From: Escherichia coli | GTDB lineage: Bacteria; Pseudomonadota; Gammaproteobacteria; Enterobacterales; Enterobacteriaceae | DNA: 64,000 bases | Assembly: GCF_050320075.1 (NCBI RefSeq) | Contig: NZ_CP190018.1 | Direction: 5' to 3' (one strand) | Shown here: piece after piece, positions 2 through 7,552 of the stretch | Numbering within the stretch: position 1 is the first letter of the stretch | Layout of the letters: each line of letters opens with the position of its first letter | The notes under the pieces: generated by a model | What the model was told of the DNA's origin: nothing | Database searches by the model: none | Seen by the model: the letters and a program-made list of their open reading frames with translations, nothing else | Translations under genes and position numbers: made by a program

Positions 2-733
2 GATGTGAGCGTCATCTACCCTGACCGTATCCGCCGCCGTCCGCCCGGAACGACCTCCAAAGGTCTTGGAGCGCATACCGACTCCGGGGCACTGGAACGC
101 TGGCTGCTTCCAGCGTATCAGCGCGTTTTCGCCAACGTCTTTAATGGCAATCTGGCGCAATATGATCCCTGGCATGCGGCACATCGTACGGAAGTTGAAG
201 AGTACACGGTGGACAACACCACCAAATGTTCCGTGTTTCGGACATTCCAGGGCTGGACAGCGCTCTCTGATATGCTGCCTGGTCAGGGGCTGCTGCACGT
301 CGTGCCCATTCCTGAAGCCATGGCGTACGTACTGTTACGTCCGCTGCTTGATGATGTGCCGGAGGATGAACTGTGCGGCGTAGCGCCCGGAAGAGTATTG
401 CCGGTATCAGAGCAATGGCATCCACTGTTGATTGAGGCGTTAACCAGCATTCCAAAACTCGAAGCCGGAGACTCCGTCTGGTGGCACTGCGACGTCATCC
501 ATTCCGTTGCCCCCGTTGAAAATCAACAGGGCTGGGGCAACGTGATGTACATTCCTGCGGCACCGATGTGCGAGAAAAATCTTGCCTACGCGCACAAGGT
601 GAAGGCCGCACTGGAAAAAGGCGCATCGCCGGGCGACTTCCCGCGCGAGGACTATGAAACAAACTGGGAAGGACGCTTTACGCTTGCCGACCTCAACATT
701 CACGGTAAGCGAGCGTTGGGAATCGACAGCTGA
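2..733 (+). CDS. ybiU: YbiU-like DUF1479 protein, C-terminal part (N-terminus lies upstream of the window)
   Basis: ORF-track frame open from window edge to stop at 733; translation carries HTDSG...WWHCDVIH motifs that I associate with the DUF1479 / 2OG-oxygenase-like family; position next to ybiT. Confidence 0.7.
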   Translation, partial: DVSVIYPDRIRRRPPGTTSKGLGAHTDSGALERWLLPAYQRVFANVFNGNLAQYDPWHAAHRTEVEEYTVDNTTKCSVFRTFQGWTALSDMLPGQGLLHVVPIPEAMAYVLLRPLLDDVPEDELCGVAPGRVLPVSEQWHPLLIEALTSIPKLEAGDSVWWHCDVIHSVAPVENQQGWGNVMYIPAAPMCEKNLAYAHKVKAALEKGASPGDFPREDYETNWEGRFTLADLNIHGKRALGIDS

Positions 734-1803
734 GTGTCGTACAGCCCTTCCCGTTCCACGGCGGTGTTCCCTTTTCCTGGGCGAACCCGCCGCACTGACT
801 CCCGCACCGCCAATCGTCCGTGCAGCAGCAGCGAGCCCACCGGAGCATCCGGGCGAATCAGCCGCTGTTGCAACATTTGCACCGCTTCATTGCCTAGCTC
901 ATCGCGTGGCACATGCACAGCCGTCAGGGGAACATCCTCGATTGCCGCAAGGTTAAAGCCGTCGATACTCATCACCGAGACATCCTGTGGTACGCGCAGA
1001 CCACGACGATGTAGCGCATTTACCGTTCCCGCCGCCATAAAATCCCCGCCGACCAGAAACGCCGTCGGCAACGTCTTGCCATTGGCGGCATCCAGCCACG
1101 CTCCGACCTTTTCTTCCGCTTCTTTAGCGCTAAAACTGCTGATATTCAGCAAATGACGGTCATGGTGAAAGGCCAGATTATGCTGACGCCATGATTCTTT
1201 AATCCCTGCAAACCGCTGCTCCATAGTGTAGCGGCGCAGGCACATCACATTCATCACCTCCCGGTGACCCATTTCAAACAGATAGCGGGCGGCGAACGCG
1301 CCAATTAACCGATGGTCCGGCGCAATCGCCGGGAGGCGCATTCGTTCATCACGGCAGTTGATCAGCACACAAGGCTTAGCGAGATCGGCGGCCAGATCAT
1401 GGATGTGCGGATCGTCAATCCCCAGCAGGATCGCCGCCTGCGTATCTGCTTCATTCATTCGCGAGAGAAATAGCGCGGGATCGCTGTCAAACTCCTCCAG
1501 CGCGCAGTAACGCAGCCGCACTTCATGCGGCGATAACGCTTTGCTGATGCTCTGGATCACACGGTAATAAAAGATATCAGATCGTTGGTCAAAAGCGCGT
1601 TGCGGCGCGAAAATAATCAGGTTGTTCAGCAACATACGACCTGCTGCCATGCCATCCATCACGCCCAACTCACGCGCGCAGGCCAGCACCTGTTCGCGAG
1701 CGCGTGCACTGGTATTCGCTTTGCCAGCCAGCACCCGCGAAACCGTACTCGGCGATAGCCCGGTACGTGCGGCGATATCGGCGATTTTCAGCTTCTTGTC
1801 CAT
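700..1803 (-). CDS. LacI-family transcriptional regulator (367 aa from ATG at 1803)
   Basis: N-terminal HTH (MDKKLKIADIAARTGLSPSTVSRVLAG) and periplasmic-binding-protein-like sugar-binding body; ATG checked at 1801-1803 (cat on + strand); 34-bp convergent overlap with ybiU. Confidence 0.8.
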   Translation of the reverse strand: MDKKLKIADIAARTGLSPSTVSRVLAGKANTSARAREQVLACARELGVMDGMAAGRMLLNNLIIFAPQRAFDQRSDIFYYRVIQSISKALSPHEVRLRYCALEEFDSDPALFLSRMNEADTQAAILLGIDDPHIHDLAADLAKPCVLINCRDERMRLPAIAPDHRLIGAFAARYLFEMGHREVMNVMCLRRYTMEQRFAGIKESWRQHNLAFHHDRHLLNISSFSAKEAEEKVGAWLDAANGKTLPTAFLVGGDFMAAGTVNALHRRGLRVPQDVSVMSIDGFNLAAIEDVPLTAVHVPRDELGNEAVQMLQQRLIRPDAPVGSLLLHGRLAVRESVRRVRPGKGNTAVEREGLYDTQLSIPNARLP

Positions 1804-2097
1804 TTTGTGATCTGCCTCTAATTCGGAAATGACAGAATTTTCATGAGCAAAAAAGCCCATTCTGTCTGGCATTAAATCCATTTCAGTAATGTATATCAGT
1901 CACTCATGGAAAAACGTGCACAAAACCCGCTTTCTTTCGCTTTTAGGGTCTCTTACTGTGAATTGGTAGAACAACTTCCATACAAAAATAATGGAAAAAC
2001 GAACAATAAAGACTTTATTTATCAAAAAGTTAAAAGTGGTGTGACAACTCCATTCTGACGTTGCCACACAAACCCTATACCATTCTGTGGAGTGCAT

Positions 2098-3399
2098 ATG
2101 AGTCAGGGTATCAATAACGATATGACTGCCAGTAAACCGCGCCATATCGTCAAAAATCTGCGTTGGTGGATACTGGTCCTTTTTTTGCTCGGTGTTACTG
2201 TCAACTACATCACGCGTAACTCGCTGGGTATTCTCGCCCCCGAACTGAAAAGCAACCTGGGGATTACCACCGAACAATATTCCTGGATTGTAGGTGCTTT
2301 CCAGCTCGCCTATACCCTATTCCAACCGTTGTGTGGATGGCTGATTGACGTCATTGGCCTCAAACTGGGCTTTATGATCTGCGCGGGACTGTGGGCGCTG
2401 GCCTGTCTGATGCATGCGGGGGCGGGAAACTGGGTACATCTGGCGCTGTTGCGCTTCTTTATGGGCGGTGCGGAAGCCGCGGCAACCCCAGCAAACGCCA
2501 AAACCATCGGTGAATGGTTTCCAAAATCAGAACGCCCGATCGCCGCAGGCTGGGCAGGCGTCGGTTTTTCCATCGGTGCCATGCTGGCCCCACCGATTAT
2601 CTATTTTGCCCACGCTTCATTCGGCTGGCAGGGTGCATTTATGTTCACTGGCATCCTGGCGATGCTGTGGGTGGTGCTGTGGTGGGCGTTCTATCACAAC
2701 CCGGATAAGCATCCGAACCTCAGCAAAGCCGAGCTGGACTTTATCCGCCAGGATAACGAAGCGCCCCCGATTAAATTACCCTTTCTGACCGCACTGAAAA
2801 CCGTGGGCAAAAATAAACGCTTTTACGGTATCGCTATCCCGGCCTTTATGGCAGAACCGGCGTGGGCGGTGATGAGTTTCTGGGTGCCGCTATACCTGTC
2901 CAAAACCTATGGCATGGACCTGAAGCAGATCGCATTATTCGCCTGGTTGCCGTTCCTCGCCGCTGATCTTGGCAGTATTGCCAGCGGCTATCTGACCAAA
3001 CTTTACACCCGCCTGTTTGGGCTGAGTCGTGTGAACTCCGTTGTCGCATCATCGGTCAGTGGCGCATTCTTGATGGTTTCGCTGGCGGTGATGGCCTTTA
3101 CCAATAACCCGTATATCGCCATCGTCCTTATTTCCATCGGCGGCTTCGGTCACCAGATCATCTCCTGCATGCTGAGCGCACTGGTGGTGGAATCCTTCGA
3201 CAAAGGTCAGATGGCCACTGTTAACGGCATGCGCGGTTCTGCCGCGTGGATCGCAAGTTTCCTGTTCTCCCTGATTATCGGGGTTACCGCTGACAAAATC
3301 GGCTTTAACCCCCTGTTTATCGCCATGGGCTTCTTTGACCTGATTGGCGCTTTCTTCCTGGTCACCTTTATTGCTGAACGTCGCGCAAAACGCGCCTGA
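2098..3399 (+). CDS. MFS transporter, anion:cation symporter (ExuT/GudP-like) family
   Basis: ORF track 2092-3399; multiple TM segments and ExuT-like sequence pattern; ATG at 2098 preceded by GGAG (ORF track starts 2 codons earlier at GTG). Confidence 0.75.
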   Translation: MSQGINNDMTASKPRHIVKNLRWWILVLFLLGVTVNYITRNSLGILAPELKSNLGITTEQYSWIVGAFQLAYTLFQPLCGWLIDVIGLKLGFMICAGLWALACLMHAGAGNWVHLALLRFFMGGAEAAATPANAKTIGEWFPKSERPIAAGWAGVGFSIGAMLAPPIIYFAHASFGWQGAFMFTGILAMLWVVLWWAFYHNPDKHPNLSKAELDFIRQDNEAPPIKLPFLTALKTVGKNKRFYGIAIPAFMAEPAWAVMSFWVPLYLSKTYGMDLKQIALFAWLPFLAADLGSIASGYLTKLYTRLFGLSRVNSVVASSVSGAFLMVSLAVMAFTNNPYIAIVLISIGGFGHQIISCMLSALVVESFDKGQMATVNGMRGSAAWIASFLFSLIIGVTADKIGFNPLFIAMGFFDLIGAFFLVTFIAERRAKRA

Positions 3400-3413
3400 G
3401 AGTGGATGTAAAC

Positions 3414-5777
3414 ATGAAAACGCTGAAAAACTGGACCCTGCACAAACAGTCTGCCCACCACGTTGAACTGCTGGTCGATGGCCAGCATATCCTGTGCCTG
3501 TACGTGCTGGAAGAAAATCTGTTCCGCGTGCTGTTAAAACGCAAAGGCGAGCTGGCGCTGGATCGCACCTGGAGCATTGCTCCGGCGCAGGATGTGCCAT
3601 GGGAAGGGCGCAGCCGCGAAGATCTCAGCGGCTTTAGCCTGCCCGCGTGGACATTGATCCAGCACGACGACACCGTGGTTATCGCCACCGAGTCACTGCG
3701 TGCCACCGTTCACCAGCCGCTGTGGCTGGAGTGGCACTATCGTAACAACGAAGGCGAATGGCTGCCGTTGGTGAATGACCGCCCGACCAGCGCTTATCTG
3801 CTGAATGCCCACGGCGATGGCGTGGCACACTATCAGAGCCGTCGTAAAGATGAACGCTTTTATGGCCTCGGAGATAAAGCCGGCGACCTGCAACGCAACG
3901 GTAAACGTTACGAGATGCGTAACCTCGACGCGATGGGCTACAACGCCGTTAGTACTGACCCGCTGTACAAACACATTCCATTCACCATCACCCGCCGCGA
4001 TGACATTAGCTTCGGCCTGTTTTATGACAACCTCAGCAGCTGCTGGCTGGATCTGGGCAACGAGATCGACAACTACCACACCGCCTATCGCCGCTGGCAG
4101 GCGGAAGCGGGTGATATCGACTACTACCTGTTTACCGGCGAACGCGTACTTGATATCACCAAAGCCTTCGTACGCCTGACCGGCAAAACCCTGTTCGGAC
4201 CGAAATGGAGCCTGGGCTACAGCGGTTCAACTATGCACTACACCGATGCGCCGGACGCACAAAATCAGTTGATGAACTTTATCCGCCTGTGTGAAGAACA
4301 TGCGATTCCCTGCGATTCGTTCCAGCTCTCTTCCGGTTATACCTCAATTAACGGCAAGCGCTATGTGTTCAACTGGAATTACGACAAAGTGCCGCAGCCG
4401 AAAGTGATGAGCCAGGCATTTCACAATGCTGGTTTGCACCTGGCCGCCAATATCAAGCCGTGCCTGTTGCAGGATCACCCACGCTATAACGAAGTGGCAG
4501 AAAGAGGACTGTTCATCCGTGATTCAGAAACAGATGAACCAGAACGTTCCAGCTTCTGGGATGACGAAGGTTCTAACCTCGACTTTACTAATCCGCAGAC
4601 CATCCAGTGGTGGCAGGAAGGCGTGACCACACAGCTTCTGGAGATGGGTATCGACTCCACCTGGAACGACAACAACGAATTCGAAGTATGGGACGGTGAA
4701 GCACGCTGTCACGGCTTTGGTCAGACGATCGCGATCAAACATATTCGCCCGGTGATGCCACTGCTGATGATGCGAGCCTCGATGGAAGCCCAGCAACGTT
4801 TCGCTCCGGAAAAACGTCCGTACTTGATCTCCCGCTCCGGCTGCGCGGGAATGCAGCGCTATGTGCAGACCTGGAGCGGCGATAACCGCACTAGCTGGGA
4901 CACTCTGCGCTACAACACCCGCATGGGTCTGGGGATGAGCCTCTCCGGGCTGTATAACCTCGGTCACGACGTCGGCGGTTTCTCCGGTGATAAGCCGGAC
5001 CCGGAACTGTTTGTACGCTGGGTACAAAACGGCGTGATGCATCCGCGCTTTACGATTCACTCGTGGAACGATGACCATACCGTAAACGAACCGTGGATGT
5101 ATCCGGGCGTCACTCCGGCGATCCGCAGCGCTATTGAGTTGCGCTATCGCCTGCTGCCCTACTTTTATACCCTGATGTGGCAGGCATACGCCGATGATGA
5201 ACCAATGCTGCGTCCGACTTTCCTTGACCACGAGCACGACGTTCAGACTTTTGAAGAGTGTGATGACTTCCTGCTTGGTCGCGATATTTTGGTTGCCAGC
5301 GTCGTAGAGCAAGGCGAGCGCCAGCGCCGTGTATGGCTGCCAGATAACGAAACTGGCTGGTACGATTTCTACAACGGCGAATGGTTCAGTGGCGGTCAGT
5401 GGATCACCCTCGACGCACCGCTGGAGAAACTGCCGCTGATGGTGCGTGCCGGGGCTGGTCTACCGCTCAGCAAACGCATCACCTATGTGAGCGCAGAACA
5501 AGACGATACCCGCGAACTGAAACTGTTCCCGCTGAAAGGTGTGGGCACAACGTCCGGCCTGCTGTTTGAAGACGATGGCGAAAGCTGGGGCTACCAAACT
5601 GGTAATGCGCTTTGGGTGGAATGGGAAATGGTTTGCGATGGGGCGACCATCAACCTGAAAGTCAACGCGCGCGGGGATTATCGACCTGCATGGAGTGCAC
5701 TGAAAGTGTCATTACCAGTGGAAGAAAAACGCACGCTGCTGGTCAATGGTGTTGAAGGGAGTGAATGGATGCGTTAA
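3414..5777 (+). CDS. Glycoside hydrolase family 31 (alpha-glucosidase / alpha-xylosidase-like)
   Basis: ORF track 3402-5777; GH31 nucleophile-region motif MGIDSTWNDNNEF; ATG at 3414 (GTG at 3402 possible); starts 15 bp after MFS stop. Confidence 0.8.
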   Translation: MKTLKNWTLHKQSAHHVELLVDGQHILCLYVLEENLFRVLLKRKGELALDRTWSIAPAQDVPWEGRSREDLSGFSLPAWTLIQHDDTVVIATESLRATVHQPLWLEWHYRNNEGEWLPLVNDRPTSAYLLNAHGDGVAHYQSRRKDERFYGLGDKAGDLQRNGKRYEMRNLDAMGYNAVSTDPLYKHIPFTITRRDDISFGLFYDNLSSCWLDLGNEIDNYHTAYRRWQAEAGDIDYYLFTGERVLDITKAFVRLTGKTLFGPKWSLGYSGSTMHYTDAPDAQNQLMNFIRLCEEHAIPCDSFQLSSGYTSINGKRYVFNWNYDKVPQPKVMSQAFHNAGLHLAANIKPCLLQDHPRYNEVAERGLFIRDSETDEPERSSFWDDEGSNLDFTNPQTIQWWQEGVTTQLLEMGIDSTWNDNNEFEVWDGEARCHGFGQTIAIKHIRPVMPLLMMRASMEAQQRFAPEKRPYLISRSGCAGMQRYVQTWSGDNRTSWDTLRYNTRMGLGMSLSGLYNLGHDVGGFSGDKPDPELFVRWVQNGVMHPRFTIHSWNDDHTVNEPWMYPGVTPAIRSAIELRYRLLPYFYTLMWQAYADDEPMLRPTFLDHEHDVQTFEECDDFLLGRDILVASVVEQGERQRRVWLPDNETGWYDFYNGEWFSGGQWITLDAPLEKLPLMVRAGAGLPLSKRITYVSAEQDDTRELKLFPLKGVGTTSGLLFEDDGESWGYQTGNALWVEWEMVCDGATINLKVNARGDYRPAWSALKVSLPVEEKRTLLVNGVEGSEWMR

Positions 5778-5956
5778 ATCATTACCGGGGCCGGGAGGCG
5801 ACTGCGCCTTACCCGGTCCAGCCATCGAATCCTTTACCTCAGTATTTCACGCTGCAGGAAGGCAGCAAACCTGTAAACCCCGGGAGCTTAAATAAGTAAG
5901 TGACCGGGGTGAACAGGTGAAGCCAATGCATCTGCCGCATGAAAGACGGCGGGAAA

Positions 5957-7552
5957 TTAACCGTCGATCCCTTTACTACGCAGGTAATCTTCGTAATTAC
6001 CGCTAAAGTCGATCACGCGTTCCGGGGTGATTTCCAGAATTCGGGTCGCCAGGGAGCTTACAAACTCACGGTCGTGAGACACAAAGATCAGCGTGCCCTG
6101 ATACAGTTCCAGCGCCATGTTCAGCGACTCAATAGATTCCATATCCAGGTGGTTGGTCGGTTCGTCCATGATCAGAATGTTCGGCTTCTGCATCATTAAC
6201 TTACCAAACAGCATCCGCCCTTTTTCTCCACCGGAAAGCACTTTCGCTGGCTTTTTGATGTCGTCCTGGCTGAACAGCAAACGACCGAGAATGCTGCGTA
6301 CCGCCTGCTCATCATCGCCTTCCTGCTTCCACTGGCTCATCCATTCGAACACGGTCAGATCATTTTCAAACTCATATTCGTGGTCCTGGGCGTAGTAACC
6401 AATGCGTGCGTTTTCAGACCATTTTACGGTGCCGCTGTCCGGTTGCAGATCGCCCACCAGCGTTTTCAGCAGCGTTGATTTACCGACGCCGTTGGTACCC
6501 AGTACAGCCAGTTTTTCACCCACTTCCAGCAGCAGGTTGAGATTTTTAAACAGTGGACCGTTATCAAACCCTTTGGTCAGACCTTCCACTTCCAGCGCGT
6601 TACGGAACAGTTTCTTATCCTGTTCAAAACGGATGAACGGGTTCTGACGGCTGGAGGCTTTCACCTCTTCCAGTTTGATTTTATCAATCTGGCGCGCGCG
6701 CGAAGTTGCCTGGCGAGATTTCGAGGCGTTGGCGCTAAAGCGGCTAACGAAAGATTGCAGCTCAGCAATCTGCGCTTTCTTCTTGGCGTTATCAGCCAGC
6801 AGACGCTCACGCGCCTGGGTCGCCGCCGTCATGTACTCATCGTAGTTACCTGGATAAACGCGCAGCTCGCCGTAATCCAGATCCGCCATGTGGGTACAAA
6901 CCATGTTAAGGAAGTGACGGTCGTGCGAGATGATGATCATGGTGCTGTCACGCTCGTTCAGCACCTGTTCCAGCCAACGAATGGTGTCGATGTCGAGGTT
7001 GTTGGTCGGTTCGTCGAGCAGGAGAATGTCTGGATCAGCAAACAGCGCCTGCGCCAGCAGCACACGCAGCTTCCAGCCAGGAGCAACTTCACTCATCGGG
7101 CCGTAGTGCTGTTCCACTGGAATTCCCACGCCAAGCAACAGTTCACCGGCGCGAGCTTCCGCAGAGTAACCGTCCATTTCGCCGTATTTCACTTCCAGAT
7201 CGGCCACTTTATAGCCGTCTTCTTCACTCATTTCCGGCAAAGCATAGATGCGGTCACGCTCCTGTTTCACTTCCCACAACTCTTTATGCCCCATGATCAC
7301 CGTATCCAACACAGTGAACTCTTCAAAGGCAAACTGATCCTGACGCAGCTTACCAATGCGCTCGTTGGGATCGAGGGAAACGTTACCCAACGTCGGCTCT
7401 AAGTCGCCGCCGAGGATCTTCATAAAGGTGGATTTACCACTACCGTTCGCGCCAATCAGGCCGTAACGGTTGCCGCCGCCAAATTTGACGGAAATGTTTT
7501 CAAACAACGGCTTACTGCCGAACTGCATGGTGACGTTACTGGAAACTAACAC
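5957..7552 (-). CDS. ybiT: ABC-F family ATPase YbiT (two ABC domains)
   Basis: Translation begins [24 protein letters not shown] with two Walker A motifs ([18 protein letters not shown]); apparent GTG start. Confidence 0.9.

Follow-up and report, generated by a model that had tools for sequence, protein, structure and literature searches.

What do three genes that lie between ybiU and ybiT in some strains of Escherichia coli do for the cell, and how did they come to be there? We addressed this question for a 64,000-nucleotide stretch of E. coli DNA (assembly GCF_050320075.1, contig NZ_CP190018.1), which is called the window here and whose positions are used throughout. In it, a LacI-family regulator of 367 aa beginning MDKKLKIADIA (700..1803, minus strand; open reading frame (ORF), Pfam and annotation evidence) is followed by two plus-strand genes. 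These encode a major facilitator superfamily (MFS) transporter of the anion:cation symporter group (2098..3399; Pfam, NCBIfam, annotation) and a 787-aa glycoside hydrolase family 31 (GH31) glycosidase of a subfamily marked by the motifs SSGY, NIKP and WNDNNE (3414..5777; Pfam, alignments and an AlphaFold2 (AF2) model). An earlier note, made from the sequence alone, had described the same trio, with a transporter stop at 3399 and a glycosidase start at 3414, as a sugar-utilization island whose substrate would be an α-glucoside, an α-xyloside or a sulfoquinovoside-like compound. The ORF list confirmed these coordinates, and Pfam and alignments with K-12 proteins confirmed the gene content. Neither the island nor the substrate shortlist was supported by the analysis. 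The trio is very probably an ancestral locus of the Enterobacteriaceae that was later lost in K-12 and in about 90% of E. coli, and the balance of evidence favors an ancestral cassette for a glucuronate-containing α-glycoside.

The GH31 subfamily and its glycone pocket

The glycosidase (WP_000854250.1) matches three GH31 Pfam domains above their gathering cut-offs (PF01055, 297 bits; PF13802, 127 bits; PF21365, 82 bits). Its AF2 model has a pLDDT (predicted local distance difference test) of 94.7 and, in a Foldseek comparison with the Protein Data Bank (PDB), aligned over the full length with FjDex31A and glucosidase II (template-modeling scores of 0.87 and 0.84) at 25–27% identity. No closer solved structure was found by sequence or structure comparison with the PDB. 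The motif WNDNNE, which the earlier note had pointed out, is encoded at 4662..4679 (plus strand) and carries the nucleophile Asp419, followed by Asn420 in place of the Met of WNDMNE. The general acid/base Asp490 lies in WSGDN (4872..4886, plus strand). Alignment with YicI and YihQ placed both residues in invariant columns, which we take to be those of D416/D482 in YicI and D405/D472 in YihQ, and so confirmed the expected GH31 catalytic residues. The N-terminus, judged by eye, has no hydrophobic signal sequence, and the enzyme is therefore taken as cytoplasmic.

While the catalytic pair is canonical, the glycone pocket is not. A search over 1.84 billion cluster representatives yielded 111 full-length 50%-identity representatives, which were aligned with YicI and YihQ. 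The motifs of the window enzyme replace the canonical D-I-D, I-x-D-P and WNDMNE in 100 of the 111. The 11 canonical sequences comprise eight distant representatives (GYHQSR, LDIDY, WNDMNE), one variant representative, YicI and YihQ. Ser307, Gly308, Arg316, Asn346, Lys348 and Asn420 are invariant in the 100 subfamily sequences, Met274 and Tyr309 are present in 99%, and Asp419, Asp490 and Trp382 are kept at 98–100%. Position 306 is Ser in 87% of the subfamily and Gly in 11%, and Asp in all 11 canonical sequences. Arg474 is invariant in a 41-sequence alignment, and His549 is conserved, with Asn in a minority.

Two of these motifs carry the most informative exchanges. LSSGY (4326..4340, plus strand) holds Ser306 where canonical GH31 enzymes have the −1 subsite Asp, in a column that is presumably that of D404 in GAA, D451 in mouse glucosidase II and D306 in YicI. 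NIKP (4449..4460, plus strand) begins with Asn346, in the column that we assume to be that of YicI W345, a xylose-specific residue blocking C6, and contains the invariant Lys348 in place of D482 of glucosidase II from C. thermophilum (CtGII). In CtGII, D443 recognizes the −1 glucose, and the 6-OH contacts D482 and W517 via water (PMC9061262). An alignment with mouse glucosidase II, with a constant numbering offset of 8 across the stretch, equates D443, D482 and W517 with Ser306, Lys348 and Trp382. In the AF2 model, Ser306, Lys348, Asp419, Arg474 and His549 are located at the C-terminal ends of barrel strands, on the catalytic face. Judged from these alignments, the two acidic groups that glucosidases have around glycone O4 and O6 are removed, and a conserved positive charge takes the place of one of them.

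Within the subfamily, a sub-clade (P0124, P0127, P0131, P0133, P0146) has Gly for Ser306 (GSGY) and Asn for His549 (MNSWK). The loss of His549 suggests another specificity or chemistry for these enzymes.

The pocket bears directly on two of the substrates in the earlier shortlist. A neutral α-glucoside or α-xyloside would agree with the names that relatives carry in their sources, α-glucosidase or α-xylosidase, with the best NCBIfam matches of the enzyme, which are the models for α-glucosidase MalA and α-xylosidase, and with the sugar-type ATP-binding cassette (ABC) transporters beside some relatives. These matches, however, are far under the curated cut-offs (NF040948, 305 bits against 800; NF007940, 229.5 bits against 606), the canonical glucose-binding Asp residues are absent, and Asn346 occupies the column that we take to be that of the xylose-specific Trp. 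The transporter belongs to an organic-anion family, and the commonest neighbors in relatives are glucuronate catabolic genes, as described below. We therefore consider a neutral substrate very unlikely.

A second YihQ-like enzyme acting on a C6-sulfonated sugar is more improbable still. Such a sulfoquinovosidase would explain an anionic substrate class handled by a GH31 enzyme, and Arg316 aligns with Arg301 of YihQ, one of three residues (Arg301, Trp304 and Tyr508) that we take to bind the sulfonate there. The identity to YihQ, however, is 28% and extends only over the C-terminal 379 residues, and the positions of W304 and Y508 are occupied by Phe319 and Phe523. The α-glucosidase model PRK10426, presumably the YihQ model, scored 138 bits against a cut-off of 553, and no sulfoglycolysis genes were present in any locus examined. 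Arg316 was considered as a diagnostic YihQ-like anion binder and rejected, as glucosidase II has the same Arg.

A literature search, which missed most subscription journals, found neither a characterized member of this subfamily nor a paper on this locus. What appears to be new here is the subfamily signature and the specificity that it implies; modules of this type are known, and the genes already have generic names in RefSeq.

Transporter, gene neighborhoods and substrate

If the pocket accepts an anionic sugar, which one would it be? The transporter gives a first indication. It matched PF07690 (MFS_1) with 214 bits and shares 43% identity over 414 residues with ExuT, the hexuronate transporter of K-12, in agreement with the earlier description as ExuT-like. 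Among relatives of solved structure, the galactonate/H+ symporter DgoT is the closest. Against TIGR00893 it scored 267.6 bits, below the cut-off of 395, which places it as related to the curated model and outside it. By homology, it is an MFS protein of the organic-anion symporter group (ExuT/DgoT type).

The neighborhoods of GH31 relatives point toward glucuronate. In Thermoanaerobacter mathranii, a mannitol-dehydrogenase-family enzyme and UxaC are followed, a few genes on, by a tripartite ATP-independent periplasmic (TRAP) transporter, DctPQM, and directly then by GH31. The order in Halalkalibacterium halodurans is ROK, TRAP, GH31, UxaC, UxuA and a short-chain dehydrogenase/reductase (SDR) mannonate oxidoreductase, and that in Desmospora activa is ROK, TRAP, GH31 and UxaC. 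Two betaproteobacterial-type loci have an ExuT-family MFS transporter followed by GH31. The two closest 50%-identity representatives (P0121, P0122) lie on short contigs, which gave no information on their neighborhoods. A metagenome scan with the subfamily alignment, in which ORFs were called and clustered and the clusters labeled, added 80 loci for a total of 87, of which 40 are enterobacterial-like and 47 are not. Their GH31 enzymes have SSGY, WNDNNE and WxGDN in 87 of 87 loci, and NIKP and GYSGSTM in 86. Directly upstream of GH31, the 47 other loci have an ExuT-family MFS transporter in 13 cases and TRAP DctPQM in 10, with an ABC system upstream in about 6–8. The MFS partners of the relatives are 47–58% identical to K-12 ExuT.

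The closest non-enterobacterial relatives, at 61–65% identity, contain a tight same-strand GH31-UxuB-UxaC block, which is preceded by TRAP in one locus (L111) and begins at the contig start with GH31 in the other (L113). Fructuronate reductase (UxuB), mannonate dehydratase (UxuA) and SDR mannonate oxidoreductase were recognized among the neighbors above NCBIfam cut-offs, and the tagaturonate reductase model stayed below its cut-off. Since the UxuB and UxuA models pass and that of tagaturonate reductase fails, the glucuronate branch is the one marked. A Pfam census of 110 neighbors in 26 MFS/TRAP loci identified UxaC as the commonest (7), with UxuA and Mannitol_dh at 4 each. In one locus, a CE15 glucuronoyl esterase is followed by MFS and GH31, and one more CE15 lies downstream of these. 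GH39 is present upstream of GH31 in another locus, and a PfkB kinase downstream in a further one.

A galacturonide was also considered as the substrate and ranked below a glucuronide, on the grounds that the linked UxuB and UxuA belong to the mannonate branch and that tagaturonate reductase was under its cut-off; altronate dehydratase was not searched directly.

The Halanaerobium-type loci (L101, L105, L106, L110) have identical active-site motifs, and their GH31 gene follows a sugar-type ABC transporter. Neighbors there include old-yellow-enzyme-type and Gfo/Idh/MocA oxidoreductases, a xylose-isomerase-like TIM-barrel protein, a GH63-like protein and GH130.

Based on these neighborhoods, the substrate quite likely contains glucuronate. 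Where the acid sits in it is less certain, and we give about even chances to glucuronic acid being the glycone in the −1 subsite, which would make the GH31 enzyme an α-glucuronidase. The other arrangement is an α-glucosidase with glucose in −1 and the acid as leaving group, as in glucosyl-α-glucuronate, a maltobionate-type aldonic acid or glucosylglycerate, with transport and downstream catabolism otherwise unchanged. The carboxylate-type transporters and the UxaC/UxuAB neighborhood fit this arrangement equally well, all characterized close structural relatives act on glucosides, and the glucose-ring binders R474, H549 and W382 are conserved. The defining changes, however, cluster in the glycone pocket and not in the aglycone site: the −1 Asp is Ser, the Asp at the 6-OH is an invariant Lys, and an Ile and a Met near C6 are both Asn. 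There is no obvious reason for a glucose-specific enzyme to reverse that charge, and we consider an acidic aglycone unlikely, though less so than a neutral substrate.

With glucuronic acid as the glycone, the three genes would form a self-contained, repressor-controlled catabolic cassette. The ExuT-family proton symporter would import a small anionic glycoside, and the cytoplasmic GH31 enzyme would cleave it by retaining double displacement, with Asp419 as nucleophile and Asp490 as acid/base, while the C6 carboxylate of glucuronic acid in the −1 subsite would be met by the invariant Lys348. The freed glucuronate would enter the UxaC/UxuB/UxuA pathway, which is encoded elsewhere in E. coli. Until an inducer binds, the LacI-type protein would keep the divergent promoters repressed via a conserved palindrome. 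Three genes may suffice in E. coli because uxaC, which we found, uxuAB and the xylose genes lie elsewhere in the genome.

The best candidate substrates would be xylan-derived aldouronates, such as (4-O-methyl-)GlcA-α-1,2-xylose. This source appears the likeliest because of the CE15 and GH39 neighbors, the xylanolytic hosts and the plant-associated Enterobacterales. As a specific identification, a xylan aldouronate is tentative, and we would not bet on it at even terms. Enterobacter asburiae carries the cassette (locus L019), and its strain JDR-1 reportedly ferments methylglucuronoxylose through genes that had not been identified, as Bi, Rice and Preston are said to have described in 2009.

Several points weigh against glucuronate and against the aldouronate in particular. 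The enterobacterial cassettes themselves are without uronate genes, so that the link is borrowed from relatives at 47–65% identity. Even among those relatives, uronate genes occur within 6 kb in only 8 of about 25 MFS/TRAP loci, and none were found within 6 kb in the ABC-type loci, whose GH31 enzymes have the same motifs. That Lys348 would lie close to C6 is deduced from homology and from its place at a barrel-strand end. The xylan link rests on two loci, those with CE15 and GH39. The prior for α-glucuronidase activity in GH31 is low: we know of no GH31 α-glucuronidase, and the literature search, with most subscription journals outside its scope, found no paper linking GH31 with this activity. 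Klebsiella oxytoca biocatalysts are reportedly unable to ferment methylglucuronoxylose; Klebsiella carries the cassette, and if that failure to ferment is real, it would argue against this particular substrate.

Weighing both sides, we put forward, as a possibility somewhat short of an even chance, a large GH31 subfamily of retaining α-glucuronidases that hold the C6 carboxylate with an invariant Lys. The cassette would then be the basis of aldouronate (methylglucuronoxylose) use by Enterobacter and other Enterobacteriaceae, including about 1 in 10 E. coli.

Origin of the locus and its regulatory region

How the trio came to be present in some strains and not in others was addressed by comparison with K-12. 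In MG1655, ybiT (855963–857555, plus strand) and ybiU (857796–859061, minus strand) are neighbors, as the earlier note had stated, in convergent orientation and with 240 bp between them. The junction alignment confirmed that K-12 has none of the three genes at this locus: identity ends at window position 720 and returns at about 5964, and about 5.24 kb in the window replaces the REP-containing spacer of K-12. The boundary between deletion and retention falls inside both flanking genes (window 716–733 and 5957–5968). The C-terminus of YbiU reads GIDS in the window and GMDV in K-12, the last three residues differing, and that of YbiT reads GIDG in the window and GIE in K-12, the window form being one residue longer.

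A survey of 5,426 complete E. coli genomes found the cassette complete, chromosomal and in single copy in 575 (10.6%), at 98.1–100% identity, and no plasmid copies. Carriers may belong to phylogroups D and F, an impression based on strain PCN033 only. Other E. coli show the K-12 state, the K-12 state with IS621 in the spacer, or a state in which ybiU is also gone and ybiV abuts ybiT. IS621 (IS110 family) occupies the REP-containing ybiU-ybiT spacer of several cassette-less strains (e.g., locus L003, NZ_CP150019.1), and the interval is therefore a recurrent rearrangement site. Strains without ybiU (e.g., L004, NZ_CP069935.1) have a larger deletion at the same locus, and about one-quarter of the 8-kb query matches them. 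A partial cassette match in strain IH5 (L184, NZ_CP168949.1, 5048186–5061163) was rejected as an assembly artifact; there, a piece of about 1 kb from the MFS/GH31 junction lies amid other fragments of about 1 kb (tuf, casA, capsid genes, bla), all flagged partial.

Beyond E. coli, one genome per species was scanned, and at least 597 records contained a close relative of the GH31 enzyme; the best 80 loci were searched with six window proteins (tblastn). Among these 80, the trio is flanked by ybiU and ybiT-ldtB in Enterobacter, Klebsiella, Citrobacter, Kluyvera, Kosakonia, Raoultella, Leclercia, Pseudocitrobacter, Trabulsiella and Salmonella enterica subsp. diarizonae. The locus of Klebsiella pneumoniae is arranged in this way too. 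The trio adjoins ybiT-ldtB in an Escherichia cryptic-clade genome as well, on a contig that stops before ybiU. In Buttiauxella, Cedecea and Mangrovibacter it adjoins ybiT-ldtB without ybiU, and in Serratia and Edwardsiella it is found at other genomic sites.

Some of these loci have additional DNA. Between GH31 and ybiT, 1.5–3 kb is present in L017, L022 (Pseudocitrobacter), L036 (Klebsiella michiganensis) and L039. In Klebsiella, additional DNA also separates ybiT from ldtB, and a GntR/GH1 pair lies on the far side of ldtB.

The term island implies that a minority of E. coli lineages acquired the genes horizontally, by an insertion between ybiU and ybiT. Such an origin would account for the patchy presence in about a tenth of complete genomes, for a regulator closer to Kluyvera (89–91% identity) than to Salmonella (85%) or Citrobacter (73–82%), and for a spacer that IS621 has hit in other strains. 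The closeness of the regulator to Kluyvera is unusual and makes some inter-genus exchange possible. The remaining evidence speaks against insertion. The trio has the same position in most sampled Enterobacteriaceae genera and in the cryptic-clade genome, and further deletions have occurred at the locus in E. coli, some removing ybiU too. No mobility genes, integrase, tRNA or flanking direct repeats were present at the locus in the ORF list or in the annotation of Ec-U3, a strain 100% identical to the window. The GC content of the cassette (0.53–0.58) is similar to that of ybiU, with no compositional break. Compared with the 98.1% identical allele of FDAARGOS_497, pN/pS was 0.08 for the regulator, 0.05 for the transporter and 0.09 for GH31, and the genes are therefore under purifying selection. 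Synonymous divergence between the same two alleles was 0.04–0.10, and by this measure their age looks comparable to that of E. coli lineages. We consider an acquired island improbable. Because the trio is syntenic across genera, has no mobility genes and exists as old alleles under selection, we interpret the K-12 arrangement as the deleted state of a locus that is very probably ancestral. The locus would then be a clean example of a supposed accessory island that is an ancestral locus undergoing repeated deletion.

On the left, the trio is flanked by the 3′ part of ybiU (5..733, plus strand; DUF1479/Gig2-like; ORF list, Pfam, annotation), and on the right by ybiT, which encodes an ABC-F ATPase (5957..7552, minus strand; ORF list, NCBIfam, annotation). 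The RefSeq annotation of Ec-U3 has the same genes. The 34-bp overlap of the 3′ ends of the regulator and ybiU genes, reported in the earlier note, is the same there, and the divergence of the regulator from the transporter/GH31 operon, also reported, agreed with that annotation and with the ORF list. The interval in which the GH31 and ybiT genes converge contains an inverted repeat of 22 nt (5869..5918, strand not assigned), which is imperfect (77% complementary) and has a 6-nt loop and no T-run. It may be a bidirectional stop signal; without a T-run, it is not a canonical intrinsic terminator.

The regulator matched PF00356 (LacI helix-turn-helix) with 33.6 bits (cut-off 27) and PF13377 (Peripla_BP_3) with 97.6 bits, and no NCBIfam equivalog was above cut-off. 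Its start is ambiguous: annotation places it at 1803 (367 aa, FDAARGOS_497) or at 1860 (386 aa, Ec-U3), and the longest ORF begins at 1881. Orthologs align from residue 1 of the 367-aa regulator.

An operator search in the intergenic region 1804–2097, which the earlier note had proposed, located a conserved candidate. Regulatory footprinting compared 74 enterobacterial intergenic regions, and the best-conserved block among them is ATGACAGAATTTTCAT (1829..1844, strand not assigned). Its consensus, ATGAAAAAATTTTCAT, is a 14/16 palindrome of the TGAAA...TTTCA type, which occurs once in the window, where 0.01 chance matches are expected. LacI-family operators typically have a central CG, which this palindrome does not. 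We propose it as a putative operator of the LacI-type regulator. Because the palindrome would fall inside the longer form of the gene and the family's usual N-terminus matches the shorter one, the start at 1803 is favored, which suggests that the 367-aa form is correct.

A second conserved block, ATGGAAAAACGTGCACAAA (1906..1924, strand not assigned), was located by the same footprinting and shares an ATGArAAA half-site with the palindrome. It may act as a further operator of degenerate sequence or belong to a promoter. Further downstream, promoter-like hexamers (TTGGTA-18-AATAAT, 1963..1992, plus strand) overlap the conserved block CAACTTCCATAC (1972–1983) and are a possible promoter of the MFS-GH31 operon. 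In a scan for sigma-70 promoters and terminators, sites were no more frequent than in shuffled sequence. The transporter leader contains an inverted repeat, GTGTGACAAC...GTTGCCACAC (2039..2069, plus strand), which is conserved only in part.

Significance and comparison with known systems

If the favored interpretation is true, a subfamily for carboxylated sugars would be a new specificity for GH31, which is among the best-studied glycosidase families. To our knowledge, it would also include the first α-glucuronidase with the classical two-carboxylate retaining mechanism. Aldouronates resist acid and are what is left over from hardwood and crop xylan. Hemicellulose fermentations lose them, and a module of three genes that functions in E. 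coli would have a direct use in this setting. In nature, the cassette would open a nutrient niche to about 10% of E. coli and to most Klebsiella, Enterobacter and Citrobacter, and would thereby set them apart from K-12-like strains.

How does such a cassette compare with systems already known? The yih cluster of E. coli K-12 likewise groups a GH31 retaining α-glycosidase, YihQ, with a dedicated transporter and regulator, and on the glucuronidase reading both enzymes would act on a glucose-configured sugar with an anionic group at C6. YihQ, however, belongs to another subfamily. Only the Arg among its presumed sulfonate binders has an aligned equivalent in the window enzyme, whose proposed charge partner is instead a Lys that follows barrel strand 4. 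The yih transporters are of the GPH type, whereas that of the cassette is ExuT-like, and no dedicated downstream pathway is encoded near the cassette.

The GH67 AguA clusters of xylanolytic Bacillota such as Geobacillus stearothermophilus combine a transporter, an intracellular glucuronate-freeing enzyme and uxaC/uxuA/uxuB, as in the relatives of the cassette. They differ in the enzyme family, the inverting mechanism and the ABC transporter, and none of the loci examined showed a GH67 enzyme.

Within E. coli, the ExuT/ExuR system has a homologous transporter (43% identity), and the products of both systems are expected to feed the UxaC pathway. ExuT carries free hexuronates under the control of ExuR, while in the cassette the partners of the transporter are a glycosidase and a regulator of the LacI type. 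UidA/UidB (gus) also imports a glucuronide and hydrolyzes it in the cytoplasm to glucuronate. It handles the beta anomer of host-derived substrates with a GH2 enzyme and a GPH-type transporter.

The two-gene operon YicI/YicJ of K-12 is the same in pairing a transporter with a GH31 enzyme. YicI, however, is 25% identical to the window enzyme and has the canonical −1 Asp and, presumably, the xylose-specific Trp345, and YicJ is not an anion transporter. The α subunit of the eukaryotic ER glucosidase II and the F. johnsoniae dextranase FjDex31A share the four-domain GH31 architecture, the catalytic Asp pair and the Arg/His/Trp set of the −1 subsite with the window enzyme. At 25–27% identity to it, they differ in keeping the two Asp residues near O4 and O6 whose positions are occupied by Ser306 and Lys348 here.

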